Positions 2,438 through 24,673 of a stretch of DNA of 33,341 bases are shown here, one piece after another. Made by a program: the position numbers and the translations under genes. The stretch is from Candidatus Eiseniibacteriota bacterium. GTDB taxonomy: Bacteria; Orphanbacterota; Orphanbacteria; Orphanbacterales; Orphanbacteraceae. Under the pieces are notes generated by a model, which worked only from the letters and a program-made list of their open reading frames with translations, did no database searches and had not been told where the DNA came from. The DNA is taken from the NCBI GenBank assembly GCA_043809585.1, contig JBDROZ010000095.1, positions 1 through 33,341 on the forward strand, given 5' to 3'. The stretch's first letter is position 1. Every line of letters starts with the position of its first letter.

Positions 2438-4351
2438 CTACCGTATATACCCCAGCGCTCTCAGCCCCTCGAGCGTCTCCTGGTCCACGACAAGCTCGGC
2501 CGTTTCTCCCTCTTCGATCGAAGCGAGCCAGTCGTCGATGAGGGGCGTGAGGTTCGCGACCACGTCGGGCCGCGAACCGGCGAGGTTCGTCGTCTCCCCC
2601 GGATCGGCGGCGAGGTCGTACAGTTCGAAGAGGGCGCCCTCCGGGGCCGGGATCCGGATCAGCTTCCAGTCGCCGAGGCGCACCATCCTCCACTTCCCCT
2701 CGTCCCCCGGCACGAGCCATCTCGGATTTTCCTGTTCCCCGCTCCCCACCACCGTCCGCCCGTTCTCCGCGAAAGCGGGCCGGTCCGTCTCGTCCGCCCT
2801 TCCCTCCACGACGGCGGGCACCCGGCCGTCCATCTCGGATTCCGCCGGGACTCCGGCGAGCCGGAGAAGGGCCGGCGCGAGGTCGATGAGGGCGACCTGC
2901 CGGGGCGAGAGAACGCCCGCCGGAAGCCGCTCCGGATATCGCAGAACGAGGGGCACCCGCTGGGTCGGGTCGTAAAGCAGGTGGGTGTGGGCGAACCAGA
3001 GGTCCTGCTCGCCCAGGCTCTCCCCGTGGTCCGAGGTGATCGCCACGATCGTGTTCTCCCGGAGGCCGAGAGAGTCCAGGGAGGCGAGAAGCCGTCCGAT
3101 CTCCCGGTCCGTGAAGGCGACCTCCCCATCATAGAGCGCGAAGGACGCCTCGAGCTCTCCGGGCGAAGGCCGAAGCCCGAAGATGCGCCGCCGCCCGTCC
3201 GGAAGCCTCTCGTCCAGGAGCCGCGCCTTCTCCTCGCCGTCCGGCGCGAACATCCGGTCGTACGGCGCCGGCGGCTTGTACGGGTAGTGGGGATCGAGGT
3301 AGTGGGCGTAGACGAAGAAGGGCCGGCCGCTCTTCCTCTCGAGAAGGCGGATCGCGAAGTCCGTGACCCGGTTCGCCCGGTAGCCGACGTCGAGGTCCCG
3401 GAGGCCGAGCCGCCCGAGCATCCTCCCGAGCAGGGAGTCGTCGAAGCGAACCGGCCGGTGCAGATAGCGGTACTCGTCGAACCCCTGCGCGAATCCCCAC
3501 GCCGGCGTGAGCAGGGGATGGGAATTGGCGAAGCCGGTCCGGTAGCCGGCCGCGCCAAACGCCTCCGCGAGGGTGAGCCACCGCTCCTCCAGCCGGTTCG
3601 GATGATTGATCACGCCGATCCGGCTCGGCAGCGATCCGGTGAGGAGGGCGGCGATCCCCGGCTGCGTGAAGGGGGCGGGCGAGACGGCGTCAGGGAAGAG
3701 CACCCCCTCTCGGGCGACACGGTCGATGGCCGGGCTCGTCCCCCGGGGGTGGCCGTAGCAGGCGAGGTGGTCGGCGCGGAGCGTGTCGACGACGAGAAGG
3801 AGCACGTTCGGCCCCCGGCCCGCGGCTCCGCTCCGCTCCCCGGCGAACACGCCCGCTCCAAAGAGGGCGAGAATGACGATCCCCCCGGCGGCGACAATCC
3901 GCCTCTCCATGGGCCGCCCCGGCGGGCGCCTTCCGATCAGGAGAAGGGCGCAGGCCGCGAAGAGGAGCATCACCGCGCTCGCCACGATCCCCCTGACGTT
4001 GAAGAGGCCCTTCACCTTGAAATAGTGAAACCAGAACGCGGTCCAGAAGAGGGCGGTCAGCAGCGATGCCGCGAGCGCCTCGCCGCCCCGTCGACGGAGC
4101 ACACCCCCCGCGATCAGACCGAAGGGGATGGCGAAGATCACGCCCAGCGCGCCGTAGAAAAGGGCGAGGAGAAGGCCGTAGGAGAGCCGGTCTCCCGGGG
4201 AGGCGAACCAGTACGGATGGGACGCGAACTGGGCGACGGCACCCAGGATTCCCGCGGCGGCGAAGGCCGGGATCGTCCAGGCGGCGGTTCTCCTGTTGAC
4301 GGGCACGGGCAGCCTCCTTCCACGGGGGAACGGATCCCGGCTCCATTCCAA
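2438..4351 (-). CDS. membrane-anchored sulfatase-like hydrolase/transferase (alkaline-phosphatase superfamily; LtaS/EptA/MdoB-like architecture)
   Basis: Four or five N-terminal TM helices, then NVLLLVVDTLRADHLACYGHPRGTSPAIDRVAREGVLF. The position of the sulfatase CxPxR motif reads APFTQPG (Thr nucleophile, no FGly Cys). DHGE and HTH metal-site motifs are present. Start is TTG at the ORF edge, so the start is uncertain. TAG stop. Confidence 0.75.
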   Translation of the reverse strand: MEWSRDPFPRGRRLPVPVNRRTAAWTIPAFAAAGILGAVAQFASHPYWFASPGDRLSYGLLLALFYGALGVIFAIPFGLIAGGVLRRRGGEALAASLLTALFWTAFWFHYFKVKGLFNVRGIVASAVMLLFAACALLLIGRRPPGRPMERRIVAAGGIVILALFGAGVFAGERSGAAGRGPNVLLLVVDTLRADHLACYGHPRGTSPAIDRVAREGVLFPDAVSPAPFTQPGIAALLTGSLPSRIGVINHPNRLEERWLTLAEAFGAAGYRTGFANSHPLLTPAWGFAQGFDEYRYLHRPVRFDDSLLGRMLGRLGLRDLDVGYRANRVTDFAIRLLERKSGRPFFVYAHYLDPHYPYKPPAPYDRMFAPDGEEKARLLDERLPDGRRRIFGLRPSPGELEASFALYDGEVAFTDREIGRLLASLDSLGLRENTIVAITSDHGESLGEQDLWFAHTHLLYDPTQRVPLVLRYPERLPAGVLSPRQVALIDLAPALLRLAGVPAESEMDGRVPAVVEGRADETDRPAFAENGRTVVGSGEQENPRWLVPGDEGKWRMVRLGDWKLIRIPAPEGALFELYDLAADPGETTNLAGSRPDVVANLTPLIDDWLASIEEGETAELVVDQETLEGLRALGYIR

Positions 4352-9758: not shown

Positions 9759-11270
9759 TCACCTTCTCGTCACCCGGTGTACGTGGAATCCGAAATCGAC
9801 GGGCTGGGTTCTATACTTATGTTCAGCGAAATGGGGCCGGTTTTCCCACGGAATGTCCGGGTACGGGACGCGGTAGCGGGTCAATCTCCAGCCGCCCTTC
9901 TCCTCCATGGCCCGTGCATACTCCATTGCCGGGTTGACGATCTCGGACCTGGGCCTCTCGATGATCCAATCGGCCTGCTTGAAGCTGTAGAGATACGAGG
10001 GCAATCCCTCGACCCGCCTCCGCGCTTCCGGATCGGAGGTTGTGATCTGTCCCACCATCCGGAGGTTGGTATAGAACATGATGGGCAGAGGATTGTGAAA
10101 TGTGAAAACGAAATCGTCCGGACCGGCATGTTCCCTCAGGAACTCGACGATCCCCTCGTTCGGTCCGTCGTAGTCGTGAGTGATCTCATAGAGAAAGGGG
10201 AGAAAGGCGCGCCCGTGAAAGAGAAGAAGTGCGCCGAGCACGGCGAACCCGAGGATCCGCTTTCTTCGGAAGCACGCCACGACCATGAGCCCCGAGAGAA
10301 GAGACAAGAGTGGGATGAGGAACACGGTATACCGTGGATTCGGCCAGAGGAGGTAGGAGACGAGCAGTATGGGGGGAACGAAGAGACACGCCGCCAGATT
10401 CAGAATCCTGCGGTTTTGGCCAAGGAGCGGGTATGCGAGGAGGATGGCGAAAGGGAAAATGTGGTTGTTGTAAGCCGCGAGGTACTCCCCGATCGCGGGA
10501 AAGAAGGACGGGCGGTGAAAGTGCTGAATATGCCGATGAACACGCGCCGGATCGGAGTACAGGAACCACGGCGTGCCCAGAGCGGCGATGCCGATCGTGA
10601 TGGCGGCGAAGCGAAAGAACAGTCTGCGTTCGAACCCGAAGAGGAGAAAGTGGATCCAGAAGCCGAGCAACGTGAAGAGACATGCACTGTTCTGCGCGTA
10701 GAAGAGGAAGATCGCGCCAACAAGGAAGAGAAGGTCGTACCGAAACCGTCCGAGTTTGCGGTAGCCTGCCAGCATGAGAAGGAACCCGAACGGCAGCAGC
10801 CCATAGTACCGACACTGTCGCATGTGCAGAAGGTATGGAGTGTTCAGCGCCAGCAGCGCGGCGGACAAAAGCGCGGTTTTTGAATCCGCCGTGTAGAGCC
10901 GGCCGACCCAATAGAGAAGCAAGATGCCGGCGAGCCCGATCATCGCGAATAGGAACCTTCCTCCGAACGTGGTCGGTCCCCAGATCCGGAAGCCGGCGGC
11001 CGCGAAATAGTGCATCGCCCAGGGCGAAAGCGTCCACACGAGATCGTCGTTGAACTGGTCGCAATTGACCGATACCCCGGGCTCGGTAACGAGGTTTCGT
11101 CCGTCCCACGCCCGGGGAAGCCAGTTGAATCCGTCTTCCCCTGAACCGATTGTCCGGGCGACGAGGGCCGTCTCCGCCTCGTCGACCCAAAAGTAGACGT
11201 TTCCGAGGTTCTTGAAGAGAAGAACCGCTCCGACCACGAGTATCAGCAGAAGAGGACCGATTGTCTTCAT
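9759..11270 (-). CDS. polytopic membrane glycosyltransferase, GT-C fold (ArnT/PMT, GT39/GT83-like)
   Basis: About 12 predicted TM helices after the signal-anchor MKTIGPLLLILVVGAVLLF, then a C-terminal soluble domain. ATG at 11270 has a GGGGAG RBS. The longer ORF to 11324 begins with GTG and no RBS. TGA stop at 9759-9761. Confidence 0.6.
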   Translation of the reverse strand: MKTIGPLLLILVVGAVLLFKNLGNVYFWVDEAETALVARTIGSGEDGFNWLPRAWDGRNLVTEPGVSVNCDQFNDDLVWTLSPWAMHYFAAAGFRIWGPTTFGGRFLFAMIGLAGILLLYWVGRLYTADSKTALLSAALLALNTPYLLHMRQCRYYGLLPFGFLLMLAGYRKLGRFRYDLLFLVGAIFLFYAQNSACLFTLLGFWIHFLLFGFERRLFFRFAAITIGIAALGTPWFLYSDPARVHRHIQHFHRPSFFPAIGEYLAAYNNHIFPFAILLAYPLLGQNRRILNLAACLFVPPILLVSYLLWPNPRYTVFLIPLLSLLSGLMVVACFRRKRILGFAVLGALLLFHGRAFLPFLYEITHDYDGPNEGIVEFLREHAGPDDFVFTFHNPLPIMFYTNLRMVGQITTSDPEARRRVEGLPSYLYSFKQADWIIERPRSEIVNPAMEYARAMEEKGGWRLTRYRVPYPDIPWENRPHFAEHKYRTQPVDFGFHVHRVTRR

Positions 11271-11436
11271 GGCTGCTCCCCGCCGGAGCCTCCGGGACTC
11301 TTCAAGTCGATGATCGGTAGGCACTCCGCAAGGACTTTACCAGAGAACGGCTTGTCTCGGGTGTGTGATCGCGGATCCATGTTGTCATGGGAATCCCGAT
11401 CGGCTCCGCAGCGGGCCCCGACCCCGAATCGCGCAC

Positions 11437-13678: not shown

Positions 13679-15829
13679 ATGATGGGCGCCATGGCCGGGT
13701 TCTTTCGGACGTTCTTTCTCGAGACCGTCCGAGTGCTCTACGAGAGCGGGATCTTCGTACTCTTCGGCTTCTTCATCGCCGGACTCCTGCACCATTATCT
13801 CGCGACGGACCGGATCGTCCGCCATCTCGGGAAGCGCGATTTCCGGTCGATCCTGAACGCGGCCGTGCTCGGCGCCCCCCTCCCCCTCTGTTCCTGCGGG
13901 GTCCTTCCCGCGGCGGTCGCCCTCCGGCGGAAGGGGGCGAGCCGGGAGTCGGTCCTTTCCTTCCTCGTCTCCACCCCCGAGACGAGCGTCGAATCGATCG
14001 CCGTCTCTTATGGTCTTCTCGGTCCCGTGTTCGCCGTGGTTCGGCCCCTGGCCGCCCTCTTTTCCGCGGCCGTGGCGGGCGTGGCCCATCTGGTCTTCGG
14101 CGAGGAGCGGGCGGGGGAGGTGGACGAAGGGGAGGCGCCGGCGGCGAAAGCGGACGATGGCGGGTGCGAACCGGCATCGGAGGCGAAACCTCCGGCGACG
14201 GCCGGGAAGGGGCGGTTCCGGGGGTCCGTCGACTACGCCTTCGTCACCCTCTTCGACGAACTGGTCTTCTGGTTCCTCTTCGGCGTGATCCTGACCGGGC
14301 TTCTCGGTGCCGTCCTGCCGGAGGATTTCTTCGCCCGCACTCTGGGGGCGGGGTTCCTTTCGATGCTCTTCGCGATCGCCGTCGGCATCCCCCTCTACAT
14401 GTGCGCGTCCGGATCGACCCCGATCGCCGCCGCGTTTCTGGCGAAGGGACTGAATCCAGGAGCCGTCCTCGTCTTTCTTCTCGCGGGGCCGGCGACGAAC
14501 GCCGCCACCCTCACGGTCCTGGGGCGGACTTTCGGCAAGCGTTTCCTCCAGATCTTTCTCGCGTCCATCGTCGTCTCCGCCCTCGCGGCGGGATACGCGC
14601 TGAACCGGGTGTACACATGGAGCGCCGATCAGGTGCCGGACTACGGCGAAGGGACGGCCGGCTTTCTGATCAGCGTGATCAAGGGGCTCGGCTTCCTCGC
14701 GTTCCTCTTTCTCGCCTGGCGGAGCCTCCGCCGGACCGGTCTCGGCCCGGGGATACGGGAGCTCCGGGGGAACCTGGTCACCGTCTTCACCCCCCTCCTC
14801 CGCCTCCGGCCCCGTCATCTGTTCGGCACGCGGGCCGGCCGGATCGCACTCGTCCTCGCGGTTCTCGCCTGGCTCGCGAGCGGGTTCTATTCGGTGCGTC
14901 CGGGGGAAGTCGGCCTGGAAAGGGACTTCGGGAAGGTGGCGGCGACGAACGTTCCTCCGGGACTTCACTGGTGTTTCCCCCGGCCCGTGGGGCGGGTGGC
15001 GAAGTGCTCCGTGGAGGGGATCGTCCGGGTGGACATCGGATTCCGGTCGGGGACGAAGACCCGGGACCCCCTCGCGTTCTACGGCGCGCCGGAGGAGGAG
15101 GAGACGCCGGTCAGCCGGGTCTTCGACGAGTCGGTCTTCCTCACCGGCGACGAGAATCTGATCGACGTGGTCAGCACGGTTCACTACCGCGTGACCGACG
15201 GGGCGACGTACGTCTTCGGCGTCGAGTCGGGGGAGGGAATCGTGCGGAGCACCGTCCTCTGGGCTCTGGTCCGGGAGCTCGCGAACCGGTCCATCGACCG
15301 GATCTACACCACCGACCGCCTCGACGTGGAAGAGCGGGTCCGGGATCGGGCGAACCGCATTCTGGTCGAAGCCGATTCGGGGCTCCGCATCGAGGGAGTT
15401 CGCCTCGTCGATGTCCACGCCCCCCGCGAGGTCCACTACGATTTTCGCGACGTGGCAAGCGCCCAGGAAGACCGGGCCCGGATGATCCACGAGGCCCGGG
15501 TCTACTGGCAGGGGACGGTTCACGAAGCCCGGGGGCGGGGGGCACGGATCGTCTCCGACGCATCGGGCGCCAAAGCCCTGGCCGTCGCCGGCGCGGCGGG
15601 CTCGGCCCGCCGGTTTCGCCTTCTCGAGGAAGCGGCCCGTGCCGAGCGGGGGGGGACCCGCACCCGCCTCTACCTGGAGTCGATGGAGCGCGTGCTCCCC
15701 CTGTCGGGACGCACCGTGGTCCGGCCCGACCCGGTCGGCGTGAAGGATTTCGAACTCTGGTTCAAACTCGGGGAGGAACCGACGGTGCTCCCCGGATTGC
15801 TCGGTGAAGAGAAAGGGGACCTGCGATGA
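13679..15829 (+). CDS. fusion protein: DUF318/COG0701 (ArsP-like) two-repeat permease + C-terminal HflK-like SPFH/band-7 domain
   Basis: N-terminal half carries the GAPLPLCSCGVLPAAVAL permease motif and two 4-TM repeats joined by an acidic linker. C-terminal half, VRPGEVGLERDFGKV...NVPPGLHWCFP...FLTGDENLIDVVSTVHYRV..., aligns with HflK. GAGGCAGGAAGGA RBS. TGA stop overlaps the next start (ATGA). Confidence 0.8.
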   Translation: MMGAMAGFFRTFFLETVRVLYESGIFVLFGFFIAGLLHHYLATDRIVRHLGKRDFRSILNAAVLGAPLPLCSCGVLPAAVALRRKGASRESVLSFLVSTPETSVESIAVSYGLLGPVFAVVRPLAALFSAAVAGVAHLVFGEERAGEVDEGEAPAAKADDGGCEPASEAKPPATAGKGRFRGSVDYAFVTLFDELVFWFLFGVILTGLLGAVLPEDFFARTLGAGFLSMLFAIAVGIPLYMCASGSTPIAAAFLAKGLNPGAVLVFLLAGPATNAATLTVLGRTFGKRFLQIFLASIVVSALAAGYALNRVYTWSADQVPDYGEGTAGFLISVIKGLGFLAFLFLAWRSLRRTGLGPGIRELRGNLVTVFTPLLRLRPRHLFGTRAGRIALVLAVLAWLASGFYSVRPGEVGLERDFGKVAATNVPPGLHWCFPRPVGRVAKCSVEGIVRVDIGFRSGTKTRDPLAFYGAPEEEETPVSRVFDESVFLTGDENLIDVVSTVHYRVTDGATYVFGVESGEGIVRSTVLWALVRELANRSIDRIYTTDRLDVEERVRDRANRILVEADSGLRIEGVRLVDVHAPREVHYDFRDVASAQEDRARMIHEARVYWQGTVHEARGRGARIVSDASGAKALAVAGAAGSARRFRLLEEAARAERGGTRTRLYLESMERVLPLSGRTVVRPDPVGVKDFELWFKLGEEPTVLPGLLGEEKGDLR

Positions 15830-16728
15830 GCCGAAGGAAGCGGTGGACCCTGATCGTCCTCTCAGCCCTCGCGGCGGTGTACGTCGCCTCCTCGTTCTAC
15901 GTGGTCGACGTGACGGAGTACGTGGTGGTGACCCGGTTCGGTGACCCGGTGGCGGTCCACACGTCGCCCGGGCCCCACTTCGACCTCTGGAAGCCGATCG
16001 AGACGCTCGTCCGCATCGACGCCCGGCTCCTCACTCTCGATCTGGAACCGTCCGAGTTCCTCACGGAGGACAAGAAGAACGTGGTGGCGAGCGGGTACAC
16101 GCTCTGGCGGGTGGACGACCCGCTCCTCTATCTCAGGCGCGTCTACAGCCGGCGGGGGGCGGAGGCGAGGATCGCTGACATTATCTCCTCCGAGATCGGC
16201 TCCGCTCTCGGCCGGGTCCCCTTCTCCGCCCTCGTCTCCACGGACAGCACGGTGATCCGTCTCGACGAGGTGGTCGCGTCGATCAAGGAGCGGAGCGCGG
16301 GGCGGCTGAGCGAGGACTACGGGCTCGAGATCCGCGAGTTCCGGATCAAGCGGCTCGCCTTCCCCGAGCAGAACAAGGAATCGGTCTTCCAGCGGATGAG
16401 GGCCGAACGGCAGCGGATCGCCCGGCAGTACCGTTCCGAGGGGGAAGAGGAGTCGATGAAGATCAAGGCGGACGCGGACAGGCAGAAGACGGAGATCCTC
16501 GCCGATGCGTCCCGCCGGGCCGAGGAGATCCGGGGGGAAGGGGAGGCGGACGCCGCCCGCATCTACGCCGAGGCGATCCGGGCCGATCCGGATTTCTACA
16601 CCTTTCTCCGGACTTTGGACAGCTACGAGAAGATCGTGGACGAGAACACGACCTTGGTCCTGCCGAGCGATTCGGAGCTGATGCGGCTCCTGACGACCGG
16701 CCGGACGGCGTCAGGGGGGGGACGGTAG
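15826..16728 (+). CDS. hflC: HflC-like SPFH/band-7 protein
   Basis: N-terminal TM, then SFYVVDVTEYVVVTRFGDPV...GPHFDLWKPIETLVRIDARLLTLDL and the C-terminal coiled region typical of HflC. The start overlaps the upstream stop. TAG stop abuts the GTG of the next gene. Confidence 0.8.
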   Translation: MSRRKRWTLIVLSALAAVYVASSFYVVDVTEYVVVTRFGDPVAVHTSPGPHFDLWKPIETLVRIDARLLTLDLEPSEFLTEDKKNVVASGYTLWRVDDPLLYLRRVYSRRGAEARIADIISSEIGSALGRVPFSALVSTDSTVIRLDEVVASIKERSAGRLSEDYGLEIREFRIKRLAFPEQNKESVFQRMRAERQRIARQYRSEGEEESMKIKADADRQKTEILADASRRAEEIRGEGEADAARIYAEAIRADPDFYTFLRTLDSYEKIVDENTTLVLPSDSELMRLLTTGRTASGGGR

Positions 16729-17640
16729 GTGCGGTTACCGGTCTCACCGGGCAGGGGTCTGCTGATTCTCGGGGCGGCCGTCTGGCTGCTGGCGGGGGTC
16801 TATACGGTCGAGCAGGACGAGGAGGCGGTGGTCCGCCTCTTCGGTCGTCCGTGGAAGACCCGCGTCCCTTCGGGCATCCACTACGCGCCCCCCTGGCCGA
16901 TCGGGATCCGCACCGTGGTCCGCACGACCACGTCATACCAGATGAGCGTCGGCTTCAAGATCGCCGACTCGGTCCGCGGCCTCCCGCCGGCGCGGACGGA
17001 GGTCGAGTTCCTCACCGGGGACACGAACATCATCGATCTCGAGATGATCCTCTAGTACACGATCGAGAACCCCTTCCGATTCGCATTGATGGTGGAGGAT
17101 CCCCACTTCCTGGTCCGCCGCGCCGCGGAGGCGGCGGCGACGGGCGTCCTCGCGAAGGGCGGCGTCGACCGGGCGCTCACGTCGGGCCGGACGTCCTTCC
17201 TCGACGAGGTCCGGCGGGCGACCCAGGAGATGCTCCGGGAGTCGGACGCGGGGGTGACGGTGGTCTCCGCGACGCTGAAGCGCATCGAGCCGCCCGGCGA
17301 GGTGATCGAGGCTTTTCAGGACGTACAGAACGCCAAGTCGGACCGGGAGCGGGCCATCAACGAAGCGAACGGCTATCGGAACGAGATCCTGCCGAGGGCC
17401 AGGGGCGAAGCGGAGGCGGCCCTCTCCGCGGCCGAGGCGGACCGCCACGCCCGGGTCGAGCGCTCTCGGGGGGACGCGGACCGATTCCTCCGGGTCCTCG
17501 CCGAATACCGGAAGGCCCCTCAGGAGACCCGGGAGCGCCTCTACCTCGAGGTGGCGGAACGGGTGCTGTCGAAGGCGAAGGTCTACGTGATCGACTCGGA
17601 CGGCGGCCGCAATCCCGTGGGCGTCAAGCTGATCGACTGA
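16729..17640 (+). pseudogene. hflK: HflK-like SPFH protein interrupted by an in-frame TAG at 17053-17055 (expected Gln codon)
   Basis: 16729-17052 and 17056-17640 are in the same frame. The translation is co-linear with HflK across the stop (...FLTGDTNIIDLEMIL*YTIENPFRFALMVEDP... versus E. coli ...VDVELNVQYRVTNPEKYLF...). TAG is a normal terminator in this window (12 genes). Confidence 0.7.
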
Positions 17641-20837: not shown

Positions 20838-20949
20838 TCGGATCCTTAGATTCTGTCGCTATGGACCCCATTCTCCAAGTTAGCCATGAGATTCCGTAGC
20901 GAGGTTTCGGATCGCGAACCGGAACCACAGCAGGAATCTCATGGCTGGT

Positions 20950-22098
20950 TCAGGCTGGGCTTCCGTTCGCGGAGGGGGGGCGGCCCTTCCTCTTCGAGAG
21001 GGCCCGCCGTACTTTGAGCCGCCCGTACTCGGCGGCCACCTTCGGCAGCATCCGGGGGGTGAAGAGGATGTTGTTGGTCATGAAGCACTCGAAGGTGCAG
21101 TAGCACTTCGTCTCCCGGATCATGCGGCGGACCTCCTCGGTCCGTTCGGAAAACCAGATCTTCCGGAAGTCGTAATCCGTCTCGCGCAGGTTGCCGAGGG
21201 GCTCCTCGAGGATCTCGCACGGGTAGACGTCGCCGCCCGCGTAGATCACGCCGGAGAGGTTCGCCGCGTAGCAGGGGACCTGGTAGCCCTTCTCGCCCTT
21301 CACGATCCGCGTGATCATGTCCTGGCGGACGTTCTTCATCGCGTTGATCACGTCGGAGCCCGGGTAGTCGTGATACCCGTCCAGGCCGTCCGTCTCCGTC
21401 TCCTCCCGGAGGCGGTTCACCCACTTCTCGTAGGTGCCGGCGTCCACGCCCAAGGCTCTCTCGGCCCGCGCCCCCTTCCGGGCGATCAGGTTGTTCACGT
21501 TCCGGACGCCGTGTTTCTCCCGCATCACCGTGGTCACCTCCATCGCTTTGTCCTGGTTGAAGGAGGACATGGTGGTGCAGATGTTGGCGTTGAAGTTCCG
21601 GTGCTCCTCTTCGAGCTTCTGCAGCTCTTTCAGCGTCCAGAGGCACTTGTCGAAGAGGCCGGGGATGGCGCGGAGACGGTCGTGCTCCTCGCCGAGGGCG
21701 TCGATGGAGACGTCGACGGCGAAGTCCACGCCCGGGTTCTCCCGGAGCATGACGCGGACCTGGTCGATCACCTTGGTCGTGAGCGAGCCGTTCGTCGGGA
21801 TGCCCACGTTCCGGACGTCGTTGTTCCGGCAGAAGATTCTCACGATCTCCGAGAGGTCGTCGCGGAGGAACGGCTCGCCGCCGGTGGGGAGGAGGAAGAG
21901 GATGTCGCCCATGGAACGGGAGGTCTTGTCGTATTCGTCGACGGTCATCTCCCGGGTGGTGGAGATCACCTGTCCGAGGAGGCAGTGGCCGCAGTGGGCG
22001 TTGCAGACGTCGGTGACGAACAGAATGATGTAGTGGGGGTCGGCGTTCCGTTTCCGGAAGACGCGTTTTCCGTACTTGGCGTATCCGAGAAAGCTCAC
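20950..22098 (-). CDS. radical SAM enzyme with C-terminal SPASM/twitch-type auxiliary cluster domain
   Basis: CNAHCGHC (CxxxCxxC) and GGEPFL. C-terminal CYAANLSGVIYAGGDVYPC (CX12GX4C) followed by CYCTFEC. GTG start 4 nt after the upstream gene stop. TGA stop. Confidence 0.8.
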   Translation of the reverse strand: MSFLGYAKYGKRVFRKRNADPHYIILFVTDVCNAHCGHCLLGQVISTTREMTVDEYDKTSRSMGDILFLLPTGGEPFLRDDLSEIVRIFCRNNDVRNVGIPTNGSLTTKVIDQVRVMLRENPGVDFAVDVSIDALGEEHDRLRAIPGLFDKCLWTLKELQKLEEEHRNFNANICTTMSSFNQDKAMEVTTVMREKHGVRNVNNLIARKGARAERALGVDAGTYEKWVNRLREETETDGLDGYHDYPGSDVINAMKNVRQDMITRIVKGEKGYQVPCYAANLSGVIYAGGDVYPCEILEEPLGNLRETDYDFRKIWFSERTEEVRRMIRETKCYCTFECFMTNNILFTPRMLPKVAAEYGRLKVRRALSKRKGRPPSANGSPA

Positions 22099-22102
22099 CG
22101 CC

Positions 22103-23578
22103 CTACCCCCGCTCTCCGGGATCGCTCCGGCTCCCCCCCTTGCCGCCCTTCTTCTTGACCGACATGGCCTCCACGAAGCTCTTGAAGCCGTACAGTTTTC
22201 TCTTCACGTCGCCGACGCCCCGGATCGTGGCGGCCATCTTCGCGATCTGCTTCGGCCGGAGGTAGAACTCCTTGAGGCCCTGGTCGATGAGGGCGTCGAT
22301 CCTCTCCTTCGGCAACTCGGGATAGTCGACGACGGTCACCTGCTCCTCGTTCTCGCCCAGATACTCGCTCCAGTCTTTCGGGATCAGGTGGCCGTTCTTC
22401 TTCGCCCAGTCGTACAGCTCCGTCCCCGGATAGGCGGCGATGCCGGAGATCTGGATCGTGTCGAGGGGGAGGGACTTGGCGAAGTCGATCGTCTTCCGGG
22501 CCGACCGCTCCGTCTCTCCCGGCGCGCCGATCATGAAGCACCCGTGCAGGGTGAAGCCGAGGTCCGCCGCGTCGTGGGCGAACTCGACGGTCCGCTCCAG
22601 ATTGGTCCCCTTCTTCACCGCGTCCAGGGCCTCCTGGGTGCCGAACTCGAAGCCGATCATCAGCATCCGGCATCCGGCCCTCTGCATGAGTTGCAGGAGG
22701 TCCCGCTTCACGTCGGTCCTGACGTTGCACGACCAGCGGAGCCTCGTGTCGAGCCGCCGTCCCAGGATCTCCCGGCAGACGCCCTCCACGTGCTCCCGGT
22801 TCGCCGTGAACGTGTCGGTCTCGATCATCACCTCCCGGAGGTTCGGGAAGAGGGAGAGATCGTATTCCATCTCGTCCACCACCAGCTTCGGGTCCCGGTA
22901 GCGGTTTTCGTGGCCGTACATCAGCTGAGGATCCCGGCAGAAGGTGCACCGGGCGAAGCAGCCCCGGCCCGAGAGGAGGGTGAGGAAGGGATGGAGCTTT
23001 CCCCCGTCGTAGTACCAGTCGGGATCGATGTGGTGCCACGCGGGGAAGGGGAGTTCGTTCACGTCGATGAACGGGCGGGGGGGCGTACGGACCATCATCC
23101 CGCCCCCGCCGAGGAATGAGAGCCCCCGGGTCGACGCGGGGTCCGATCCGCCGATCAGCTCCCGCAGGGTGTAGTCGTACTCGCCGAGGGCGATGAAGTC
23201 GAGGGCCCCCTTCGCCCGCTCGAAGGTCTCTTCCGGGACGGCGGTCACGTGCTGCCCGACGAGGACCGTCTTGGCGCCGGCCGTCTCCTTCGCGAGGGCG
23301 CAGTAGGCGAGGTCGTTGTCGATGGAGGGGGTGGCGGCGTGCATGACCACCCACTCGGGGGGCTCCTGCCGGAAGAGCCTCTCGGTCCTCTCCCGGTCCC
23401 AGTTCTGGGCGCAGGCGTCAACGAGCTTCGCGTCCAGCCCGGCCTTCTCCAGAACCGCCGTCGCCACGGCGATGTAGTCCGGGTGACGTTGGACCCGGCC
23501 CCGGGAGCGGGCGTCCCATCTCGCGGAGCGCACGAAGTCTTTCACGAAGGGGGGGTTCAGCATCAGGACATTCGCCAT
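22103..23578 (-). CDS. B12-binding-domain radical SAM enzyme (COG1032-type, class B)
   Basis: N-terminal cobalamin-binding-like domain (MANVLMLNPPF...VLVGQHVTAVPEE). Radical SAM core CFARCTFC. ATG at 23578. TAG stop. Confidence 0.8.
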   Translation of the reverse strand: MANVLMLNPPFVKDFVRSARWDARSRGRVQRHPDYIAVATAVLEKAGLDAKLVDACAQNWDRERTERLFRQEPPEWVVMHAATPSIDNDLAYCALAKETAGAKTVLVGQHVTAVPEETFERAKGALDFIALGEYDYTLRELIGGSDPASTRGLSFLGGGGMMVRTPPRPFIDVNELPFPAWHHIDPDWYYDGGKLHPFLTLLSGRGCFARCTFCRDPQLMYGHENRYRDPKLVVDEMEYDLSLFPNLREVMIETDTFTANREHVEGVCREILGRRLDTRLRWSCNVRTDVKRDLLQLMQRAGCRMLMIGFEFGTQEALDAVKKGTNLERTVEFAHDAADLGFTLHGCFMIGAPGETERSARKTIDFAKSLPLDTIQISGIAAYPGTELYDWAKKNGHLIPKDWSEYLGENEEQVTVVDYPELPKERIDALIDQGLKEFYLRPKQIAKMAATIRGVGDVKRKLYGFKSFVEAMSVKKKGGKGGSRSDPGERG

Positions 23579-23665
23579 GATCCGGTCCTTCTCCCGGCGG
23601 GATCCGAGGAAGAGCGAGGGGGGAATGGCGGCCGCGCCGGCCCGCTGGTTCTCTGAAACACCCTT

Positions 23666-23694
23666 ATTTTACTGGAGTTACAGGGCTATGTCAA
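23666..23694 (-). promoter_or_regulatory. near-consensus sigma70 promoter (TTGACA-17-TAAAAT) for the radical SAM operon
   Basis: Minus-strand reading cCTTGACAtagccctgtaactccagTAAAATaag, about 90 nt upstream of the ATG at 23578. Striking in a 70% GC genome. Confidence 0.5.
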
Positions 23695-23775
23695 GGTCTC
23701 TCCCGCCCGACTCCGGCCGGCGTGTCTCTTGAAGATAGTCACCCCTCCGGATCCCGTCCACAGTCCTGGTGAAGG

Positions 23776-23803
23776 GGGGAACATCTTGCGGGCCGGGCCG
23801 AGA
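23776..23803 (+). promoter_or_regulatory. candidate sigma70-like promoter (TTGCGG-16-TATACT) for nfuA
   Basis: Lies 100 nt upstream of the nfuA start, in the divergent intergenic region. Confidence 0.35.
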
Positions 23804-23902
23804 CGAGTATACTAAGAGATAGAGACCATCCCTCTTTTCTTCTTGATCACGAGCGAGCGAAGAGGACCGAACCGAAGCCTCACCGAAAACGGGAGCGAAT
23901 CG

Positions 23903-24490
23903 ATGATCATCTTCACGGACGCGGCGCGGGAGCGAGTTCTCGCGGTGATGGAAGCCCAAGGAAAGACGGACCACGGAATCCGCGTGCGGATCGCGGGCCG
24001 CGGGTCGAGCGGATACCGGCACGAGCTCTCCTTCGTCGAGCCGGGGACGGAGCGGGAGGAGGACGGGGTGGTCGAGATCGAGGGCTTCAAGGTCTACGTC
24101 GACACCCAATCGGCCGCTCTCGTGAAAGACACGAAGGTCGACTACGTGGAGGACGCCGCGGGGGGCGGCTTCGTCTTCGACAACCCGAACGAGGTGACCT
24201 TCTCGGACCCGGACAAGGGGAAGGCGGTCCAGGATCTGGTGGAGAGTTCCATCAACCCGGCCCTCGCCAACCACGGCGGTTTCGTAGAACTCCTCGACGT
24301 GAAGGACGGGAACGTCTTCGTCCGTCTCGGCGGCGGTTGCCAGGGGTGCGGGATGGTGGACGTCACTCTGAAACAGGGGATCGAACGAATCATCAAGGAG
24401 AAGGTGGAGGGGATCGACGCCGTGATCGACACGACCGATCACGCGGGCGGGAACAACCCCTACTACCAGCCCTCCCATCATCACGGATAG
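23903..24490 (+). CDS. nfuA: Fe-S cluster biogenesis protein NfuA (degenerate A-type carrier domain + Nfu domain)
   Basis: N-terminal IscA-like fold without the Cys ligands (RIAGRGSSGYRHELSF). C-terminal Nfu domain with GGGCQGCGMVDVTLKQGIE. The ORF is open from 23843; the ATG at 23903 has a GGGAG RBS. TAG stop. Confidence 0.85.
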   Translation: MIIFTDAARERVLAVMEAQGKTDHGIRVRIAGRGSSGYRHELSFVEPGTEREEDGVVEIEGFKVYVDTQSAALVKDTKVDYVEDAAGGGFVFDNPNEVTFSDPDKGKAVQDLVESSINPALANHGGFVELLDVKDGNVFVRLGGGCQGCGMVDVTLKQGIERIIKEKVEGIDAVIDTTDHAGGNNPYYQPSHHHG

Positions 24491-24518
24491 ACAGGCTTCG
24501 AAAAGACGGCGATCGACG

Positions 24519-24546
24519 GGCGCGGCCCCCGGCCGCGCCTTTTTTC
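24519..24546 (+). terminator. rho-independent terminator of nfuA
   Basis: GGCGCGGCC-CCC-GGCCGCGCC followed by TTTTTTCT, 30 nt after the stop. Confidence 0.7.
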
Positions 24547-24644
24547 TGCCCGACTATTCGTACCGGCTTCGGAGCGAGTGGTCTCGTGCCCCTCGGGGGG
24601 CGCCGTTCCCTGCGTCTCGAATCATCGGGGGGTGTAAACTTGCT

Positions 24645-24673
24645 TTACAAAGCCCGGGGGGATGGTGTATGAT
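24645..24673 (+). promoter_or_regulatory. candidate sigma70 promoter (TTACAA-17-TATGAT)
   Basis: Lies immediately upstream of the small-ORF leader. The in-frame ATG at 24662 sits inside the -10 element, so it is not the start. Confidence 0.4.

Follow-up and report, generated by a model that had tools for sequence, protein, structure and literature searches.

A two-gene radical S-adenosylmethionine operon of Candidatus Eisenbacteria and its possible role in the tailoring of lipid-linked sugars

On what substrate do two radical S-adenosylmethionine (SAM) enzymes act that are encoded side by side in contig JBDROZ010000095.1, part of a Candidatus Eisenbacteria metagenome-assembled genome? The window, by which we mean the whole stretch of DNA that was analysed, is this entire contig of 33,341 bp. 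The answer that we favour, and to which we give about an even chance, is that the pair carries out radical tailoring of a lipid-linked hexose or (N-acetyl)hexosamine for an envelope glycoconjugate, the carrier of the sugar most likely being polyprenyl-phosphate or another lipid or glycan anchor. The two genes are:

22103..23578, (-) strand: gene 1, 491 amino acids (aa), ATG start; NCBI MFH1279334.1, named there 'radical SAM protein'
20950..22098, (-) strand: gene 2, 382 aa, GTG start; NCBI MFH1279333.1, named there 'radical SAM protein'

Both are of coding-type composition, with a GC content at third codon positions of 0.93 and 0.94, and only 4 nucleotides (nt; 22099–22102) separate the stop codon of gene 1 from the start codon of gene 2. 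In six related loci, covering a range of 70–100% identity, the two genes either overlap by 4 nt (GTGA or ATGA) or are spaced by 4 to ~20 nt. Such overlap or near-abutment is the signature of a co-translated operon, and its retention across the six loci implies that co-expression is under selection. The open reading frames (ORFs), domains and coordinates therefore agree with a preliminary description of the contig, which had proposed a two-gene radical SAM operon with its genes 4 nt apart.

Gene 1 has the class B architecture, in which an N-terminal B12-type Rossmann domain (Pfam B12-binding, PF02310, 44.2 bits against a cut-off of 32.1) is followed by the radical SAM core (Radical_SAM, PF04055, 61.3 bits); all three cysteines of its CxxxCxxC motif (C207-x3-C211-x2-C214) are invariant. 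Its top NCBIfam match is HpnJ (TIGR03471), with which it aligns end to end (residues 4–476 on model positions 3–471, E = 1e-101), but the score of 341.2 bits lies below the cut-off of 577.6 and so places gene 1 outside the HpnJ equivalog. Identity to annotated HpnJ proteins that adjoin hpnI is 31–33%, and none of hpnI, hpnK, hpnH and shc is present in the window or in the six related loci. The AlphaFold model of gene 1 (predicted local distance difference test, pLDDT, 82.3) has AprD4 as its closest solved fold, with a template modelling (TM) score of 0.72, followed by TsrM, MgmA, OxsB and TokK. Judged by its sequence, gene 1 is thus an HpnJ-like class B radical SAM enzyme of an uncharacterised subfamily.

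The evidence that bears most directly on the substrate comes from the neighbourhoods of gene 1 orthologues in other phyla. A scan of a genome collection with the single gene 1 protein returned 10 loci, and a metagenome scan was made with an alignment query, the best 80 of its 382 matches being taken as the locus sample. Some 100 loci were fetched and their genes called with homology support, after which neighbours were clustered de novo and the recurrent clusters annotated. The orthologues (54–62% identity) form 78 non-redundant groups and are hosted by Elusimicrobiota, Nitrospinota, Nitrospirota, Acidobacteriota, Latescibacteria, Bacteroidota, Sumerlaeota, Altiarchaeota and Nanoarchaeota; mean column identity of the family is 65% in a 20-sequence alignment. 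A glycan-pathway gene directly adjoins the orthologue in 50 of the 71 non-redundant groups outside the Eisenbacteria clade, and where at least four neighbours are visible such a gene lies within five genes in 44 of 54 groups, with at least two glycan families represented in 36.

Three arrangements recur. The first consists of a short family-2 glycosyltransferase (GT2), DUF2304, the orthologue, one to five B12-domain paralogues, a GT4 and a long GT2, surrounded by PMT_2/GT-C genes and epimerases. In the second, a GT-C gene with TPR repeats precedes the orthologue, which is followed by Wzm and Wzt; in the third, a long GT2 and the orthologue are followed by Alg14- and Alg13-like genes. The short GT2 partner (239 aa) best matches PpgS, AglJ and dolichyl-phosphate hexose transferase, and the long GT2 partner has 330 aa. 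DUF2304 is the GacJ family, and GacJ forms a complex with, and stimulates, the N-acetylglucosamine (GlcNAc)-P-undecaprenol synthase GacI, after whose step a GT-C enzyme transfers the sugar outside the membrane (bioRxiv 10.1101/180810). A cultured case is provided by plasmid 1 of Lawsonia intracellularis, where a gene 1 relative (33% identity) belongs to a cluster of a GT2, GalE, a further GT2, two DUF2304 genes, a SIS protein, methyltransferases and heptose-pathway genes.

Several of the sampled loci have further features. The marine-sediment contigs L030, L034, L035, L041, L043, L045, L056, L066 and L068 share one gene order (pilin-like 85-aa gene, small secreted protein, ABC-2 transporter genes, GT-C with TPR, orthologue, Wzm, Wzt), which hints at glycosylation of pilin or another surface protein. 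The glycan clusters of L011, L079 and L078 hold, in a row, the gene 1 orthologue and three to five B12-domain radical SAM paralogues of 23–32% identity. In the lineage of L087, L092, L095, L097 and L098 the orthologue (54–56% identity) is on its own in a housekeeping region (aconitase, chorismate synthase) and is directly followed by a 94-aa 2x[4Fe-4S] ferredoxin, which is likely its dedicated electron donor.

Gene 2 combines a radical SAM core (Radical_SAM, 44.9 bits; C32-x3-C36-x2-C39) with a match to the SPASM domain (PF13186, 29.0 bits against a cut-off of 21.5, residues 276–335). Its C-terminal motif reads C276-x12-G289-x4-C294 and, later, C332-x-C334-x3-C338; in an alignment of 24 homologues C276, G289, C294, C332 and C334 are invariant and C338 is kept in at least 90%, which bears out the CX12GX4C and atypical CxCxxxC noted previously. 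This is not the seven-cysteine SPASM motif (CX9-15GX4C ... CX2CX5CX3C ... C) that holds two auxiliary [4Fe-4S] clusters. Since four to five C-terminal cysteines suffice for one auxiliary cluster, twitch-like or partial SPASM is a more fitting name for the domain; of the earlier label 'SPASM/twitch', the SPASM part stands as a Pfam match and not as a full SPASM domain. NCBIfam scores reach a maximum of 64 bits (AhbD 63.6, NirJ2 61.9), and the AlphaFold model (pLDDT 89.8) has SkfB, CteB, SuiB, DesII and anSME as its nearest folds, all of them generic matches (TM 0.5–0.6, 13–20% identity).

For neither gene did the NCBIfam subfamily search, which the preliminary description had put forward as a check, give a confident assignment, the best matches all falling under their cut-offs. 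Both families are without a curated model or a descriptive name, and the literature that we searched holds no description of either family, nor of radical SAM enzymes from Eisenbacteria.

Orthologues of gene 2 at 45–51% identity, of which five distinct proteins from about three lineages were examined, have the same kinds of partner. In four of the five the orthologue directly follows a 340-aa GT2, in four it directly precedes a GT2 of 233–239 aa, and a GT-C gene of the TMEM260_N or YfhO type was called in the locus of four. Two other proteins were considered as orthologues of gene 2 and rejected, namely a 376-aa radical SAM protein on the Lawsonia plasmid and a 421-aa SPASM enzyme in L005. The two families occur together only in Eisenbacteria-type loci, where the pair lies within conserved housekeeping synteny.

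Because orthologues of both genes share one set of partners, a long GT2 and a short GacI/PpgS-like GT2, both enzymes would be expected to act on a lipid-carried sugar, and their placement in envelope-glycan clusters favours such a sugar as substrate over a lipid core, a cofactor or a protein. The relatives of gene 1 suggest the same, HpnJ having been proposed to act on the ring of a glucosamine bound to a lipid, and AprD4 being a deoxygenating enzyme of an aminoglycoside sugar. The best reading of the Eisenbacteria pair is then that it has become detached from its glycosyltransferases and forms a lineage-specific operon. In the pathway that we propose, a GacI/PpgS-type GT2 encoded elsewhere in the genome would load the sugar onto polyprenyl phosphate at the cytoplasmic face of the membrane. 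Gene 1 would split SAM to the 5'-deoxyadenosyl radical, remove a hydrogen from the sugar and, possibly with cobalamin, perform carbon-skeleton chemistry, which could be a ring contraction of the HpnJ type or a C-methylation of the MoeK5/Fom3 type. Gene 2, with its radical SAM core and one auxiliary cluster, would carry out a second step in the manner of BtrN, DesII or anSME, which could be an oxidation, an epimerisation or a deoxygenation, and the modified sugar would finally be passed by a GT-C transferase to an acceptor on the outer side of the membrane. What we infer in this scheme is the class of substrate, the sequence of the steps, the use of cobalamin and the supply of iron–sulfur (Fe-S) clusters by a neighbouring NfuA-like protein.

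Several observations weigh against it. Neither in the window nor in the six Eisenbacteria-type loci does a glycosyltransferase adjoin the pair; the GacI/GacJ/GT-C module is adjacent to orthologues in other phyla only, and the link to glycans therefore rests wholly on those orthologues. As the two families occur together in this clade alone, they may have acquired a new, clade-specific function. In about eight other loci the gene 1 orthologue lies among housekeeping genes with only a ferredoxin adjacent. The locus sample is also biased, many of its members coming from one marine-sediment lineage, and the gene 2 contexts derive from only about three independent lineages. AprD4, the closest solved fold of gene 1, is not known to use cobalamin, and the reaction of either family cannot be deduced from sequence.

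A more specific version of the proposal, which we think unlikely, is that the gene 1 family performs a widespread HpnJ/calditol-synthase-type ring contraction on polyprenyl-phosphate hexosamine, giving cyclitol pseudo-sugars on envelope polymers or proteins. If this were true, many uncultured phyla and DPANN archaea would use carbocyclic pseudo-sugars delivered by GT-C enzymes, to which the twitch-type gene 2 would add a second radical step in Eisenbacteria, and both the glycan building block and its pathway would be previously undescribed.

Among the explanations that compete with lipid-linked sugar tailoring, the one that survives best, while still improbable, is that the pair modifies the core or head group of a membrane lipid such as a hopanoid or an ether or tetraether lipid, as do HpnJ/HpnH, Grs/Gmm with Tes/Gms, and the ladderane enzymes. 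HpnJ is indeed the best family match of gene 1, a ladderane-associated B12 model scores 87 bits on it, gene 2 matches HpnH (TIGR03470) weakly, and archaeal tetraether loci likewise pair a B12-domain radical SAM protein with a SPASM enzyme (PMC13459092). These scores are nevertheless far under the respective cut-offs (HpnJ 341 against 577.6, ladderane 87 against 360, and HpnH 39 against 225 with only the N-terminal half aligned), no shc or hpn gene is found in the window or related loci, and across phyla and DPANN archaea the orthologues lie in glycan, not lipid, clusters. Tes and Gms moreover possess the full two-cluster SPASM domain (PMC13459092), for which the four to five C-terminal cysteines of gene 2 are too few; this sets it apart from the tetraether synthases (Tes/GDGT-MAS) and Gms, and no tetraether synthase appears among its PDB sequence matches (E ≤ 0.01) or the 50 Foldseek matches listed. 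The candidate functions named in the preliminary description, membrane-lipid modification or maturation of a cofactor or protein, were right only in a loose sense, HpnJ being the single lipid-pathway relative that emerged. Of the lipid enzymes that it had cited, the hopanoid methylases did not emerge, gene 1 scoring 70.6 bits against a cut-off of 650 for the C-3 methylase HpnR, nor did the tetraether enzymes, of which gene 2 finds none among its solved-structure matches.

Less probable still is that the pair has no common pathway and consists of two independently useful radical SAM genes that came to be co-transcribed near an Fe-S carrier gene in this clade. This would account for the restriction of their co-occurrence to Eisenbacteria-type loci and for the presence of each family without the other in all other lineages. 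The tight spacing retained in six loci over 70–100% identity argues instead for selected co-expression, and elsewhere both families keep the same partners, the long GT2 and the short GacI/PpgS-like GT2.

Maturation of a cofactor or tetrapyrrole, with gene 2 resembling AhbD, NirJ or a tungsten-cofactor maturase and gene 1 resembling BchE, ranks lower again and we consider it very unlikely. In its favour, AhbD (63.6 bits), NirJ2 (61.9) and the tungsten cofactor maturase (49.8) are the top NCBIfam matches of gene 2, BchE is the second match of gene 1 (106 bits) and the Fe-S carrier gene is a conserved neighbour of the pair. The scores are, however, 5 to 10 times under cut-offs of 380–650, and those for AhbD and NirJ models in particular (63.6, 61.9, 50.6 and 43 bits against 500–650) place gene 2 outside these families. 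The conserved neighbours of the pair include no gene for haem d1, alternative haem or chlorophyll, only one relative having HemN and HemE ~8 kb off, and the neighbours of the orthologues are glycosyltransferases, not cofactor genes.

The weakest candidate, a maturase of peptides or proteins that is RiPP-like (ribosomally synthesised and post-translationally modified peptide) or cross-linking and has its precursor encoded elsewhere, would fit the appearance of SkfB, CteB and SuiB among the nearest solved folds of gene 2, its weak NCBIfam matches to WgkB, PapB and DynA (33–47 bits) and the pilin-like and small secreted-protein genes upstream of some marine-sediment gene 1 orthologues, but the fold matches are generic and include the sugar enzyme DesII, the motif of gene 2 begins at residue 32 and leaves no room for an N-terminal peptide-recognition domain, and neither a protease, leader peptidase or RiPP-type exporter near the pair nor a conserved small ORF beside it in the six loci was found. 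For that last comparison every flanking ORF of 12 aa or more in the six related loci was used. Short ORFs occur mechanically in the 264-bp region upstream of the pair, and downstream the only 'small ORFs' to be conserved come from the end of the convergent gene and from its shadow frame, so that the earlier statement that no precursor peptide lies nearby holds; lacking both such a precursor and the recognition domain, gene 2 does not have the features of a RiPP maturase.

A role for gene 2 as an anSME was considered separately and is ruled out. The partner of an anSME is a formylglycine-type sulfatase (C/S-x-P-x-R), whereas the sulfatase-like proteins in the window and in L021 have Thr as nucleophile; the anSME model is absent among the 25 best of 41 NCBIfam matches, and the similarity to the anSME fold is generic (TM 0.55). 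The preliminary description had read the Thr correctly and was right that an anSME role is not supported. The protein in the window (2438–4351, (-) strand; FTQPG) belongs to the sulfatase family, has an N-terminal membrane region, and its Thr nucleophile in place of the formylglycine Cys/Ser is the pattern of LtaS/EptA-type phosphotransferases. That of L021 (8233–9996, MTTPSH) falls in the same 30%-identity cluster, and its gene lies between B12-domain enzymes and the gene 2 orthologue.

Candidate expression signals flank the operon:

23666..23694, (-) strand: putative sigma-70-type promoter, TTGACA-17-TAAAAT
23579..23665, (-) strand: 5' leader of ~80 nt, with a Shine-Dalgarno-like GGGAGAAGGA at 23586–23595 before the ATG
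20882..20946, (-) strand: long hairpin with a 14-bp perfect outer stem, directly 3' of the gene 2 stop and between convergent genes

The putative promoter, which would drive the operon, has its -35 element (TTGACA) at 23694–23689 and its -10 element (TAAAAT) at 23671–23666, with a 17-nt spacer. It is the top match (11 of 12 positions) in a scan of the window from 15 to 30 kb, the whole window contains one site that fits TTGACA-N17-TATAAT with at most one mismatch, and none of 100 shuffled sequences contained any. The reading as a promoter has comparative support in five related loci (L006, L007, L009, L010 and L022), where an equivalent -35/17/-10 arrangement precedes the gene 1 orthologue; the near-perfect and exceptional sigma-70 promoter reported before is therefore unique in the window and conserved.

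A riboswitch or other known RNA in the leader was rejected, as Rfam gave no match at gathering score in the window and none even at E ≤ 1 within 23540–23860. With the closest relatives only (L009, L010 and L022) the leader has in common a stretch rich in C, CCCCCCTC, and a box like CAGTTCGGCG. The leader of L010 (~1180–1400) also carries what looks like a small mobile element, an insertion of ~190 nt between the arms of an inverted repeat (TTAACCTGGATGATGCACGCGT, 22 nt, perfect). At the other end of the operon, the 123 nt from 20838 to 20960 that include the hairpin fold with -46.6 kcal/mol (z = -3.2; none of 200 shuffles was as stable), and the hairpin, which has no T-run, is a possible bidirectional terminator.

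Upstream of the pair, and divergent from it, lies a further gene:

23843..24490, (+) strand: NfuA-like Fe-S cluster carrier, with Pfam HesB/IscA and NifU domains

A gene of this kind is divergent and upstream of the pair in L006–L010, a position kept in every relative examined, and its product, to judge by its adjacency, may supply Fe-S clusters to both enzymes. In the window it ends in a strong terminator-like hairpin (24518–24540, (+) strand; 10 bp, including 9 GC pairs, before a T-run), ~100 nt beyond which is a second promoter-like site, TTTACA-18-TATGAT (24644–24673, (+) strand; 10 of 12 positions).

Elsewhere in the window, ABIK65_13190 (9759–11324, (-) strand), 10.8 kb from the pair, encodes a 521-aa polytopic membrane protein that PGAP calls 'hypothetical'. 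Pfam finds nothing significant in the protein (PMT_2, E = 0.63), yet PMT_2 or Glyco_transf_22 is present in its homologues, which go under the names ArnT-like or GT39 and thus identify it as a GT-C glycosyltransferase using lipid-linked sugar donors. As the transferase missing from the pair it was rejected, its homologues lying among housekeeping genes without a radical SAM neighbour. The gene sits in the lowest-GC and most skewed kilobase of the window (GC 0.585). An operon at 13679–17640 ((+) strand) is led by a 716-aa fusion of an ArsP-type permease with SPFH/Band 7. Behind it come two Band 7 genes, of 300 and then 184 aa, with a 108-aa gene between them that has no Pfam match; the fusion and both Band 7 genes are syntenic in L007. 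The sole tandem repeat of the window is GTGGGAT in 4.6 perfect copies (1692–1723).

The gene 1 family is a well-defined target for further work, with ~60% identity from Elusimicrobiota to Altiarchaeota and a consistent set of partners. Its reaction would reveal the radical chemistry used on lipid-linked sugars and might also shed light on the proposed mechanism of HpnJ, and hundreds of genes that at present bear no annotation beyond 'radical SAM protein' would gain a function. For the window itself the meaning is more modest: an uncultured phylum has a detached copy of two such genes behind a strong putative promoter.

Among known systems HpnJ, whose proposed reaction turns bacteriohopanetetrol glucosamine into a cyclitol ether by contraction of the glucosamine ring, is the nearest to gene 1. 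Both have the N-terminal B12-type Rossmann domain and radical SAM barrel, both have the cysteine of a WSCN motif (C284 in gene 1), and the GT2 that typically adjoins HpnJ (hpnI), which attaches a hexosamine to a lipid, has its counterpart in the GacI/PpgS-like or long GT2 next to gene 1 orthologues. They differ in that HpnJ has Leu and Thr where the gene 1 subfamily conserves C303 and C347, that HpnJ adjoins hpnI and hpnK whereas gene 1 has no hpnI, hpnK, hpnH or shc nearby, and that HpnJ belongs to hopanoid clusters while the gene 1 orthologues belong to glycan clusters of many phyla and DPANN archaea. In a published similarity network HpnJ falls into one group with MoeK5 and Fom3, C-methylases of sugars and phosphonates (PMC9204698).

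AprD4 (PDB 6fd2) is the best solved-structure match of gene 1 both by sequence (63.5 bits) and by fold, the TM score of 0.72 extending over ~485 columns but at 22% identity, and its NCBIfam model gives gene 1 64 bits against a cut-off of 500. It is a radical SAM 1,2-diol dehydratase of apramycin biosynthesis that acts on the sugar ring of a pseudo-disaccharide. AprD4 has the reductase AprD3 as its partner, which the gene 1 locus lacks, and the N-terminal domain of AprD4 is not known to bind cobalamin.

BtrN, DesII and anSME, which act on sugars or alcohols, resemble gene 2 in combining a radical SAM core with a Cys-rich C-terminal domain. Twitch enzymes, with BtrN as the case for comparison, have one auxiliary cluster, and the pattern C-x17-C ... 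C-x-C of gene 2 fits this; DesII and anSME rank among its top folds, yet only at the generic level given above.

For the pathway as a whole the closest comparison is with GacI/GacJ/GacL and, in mycobacteria, PpgS/Rv3632, in which a polyprenyl-phosphate N-acetylhexosamine synthase works with a DUF2304 activator and a GT-C transferase. As described, these pathways include no radical SAM enzyme, and none has been reported in lipid-linked sugar side-chain (GacI/DUF2304-type) or O-antigen pathways in the literature that we searched. Radical SAM enzymes are well known from the tailoring of antibiotic sugars and from lipid head-group chemistry (HpnJ, calditol synthase). The kinds of enzyme found here, a class B and a twitch/SPASM radical SAM enzyme, are known; in many loci gene 1 orthologues directly follow the short GT2 and DUF2304 and share their clusters with PMT_2/GT-C genes, and what is new is both subfamilies and their embedding in glycan modules of the GacI/GacJ/GT-C type.

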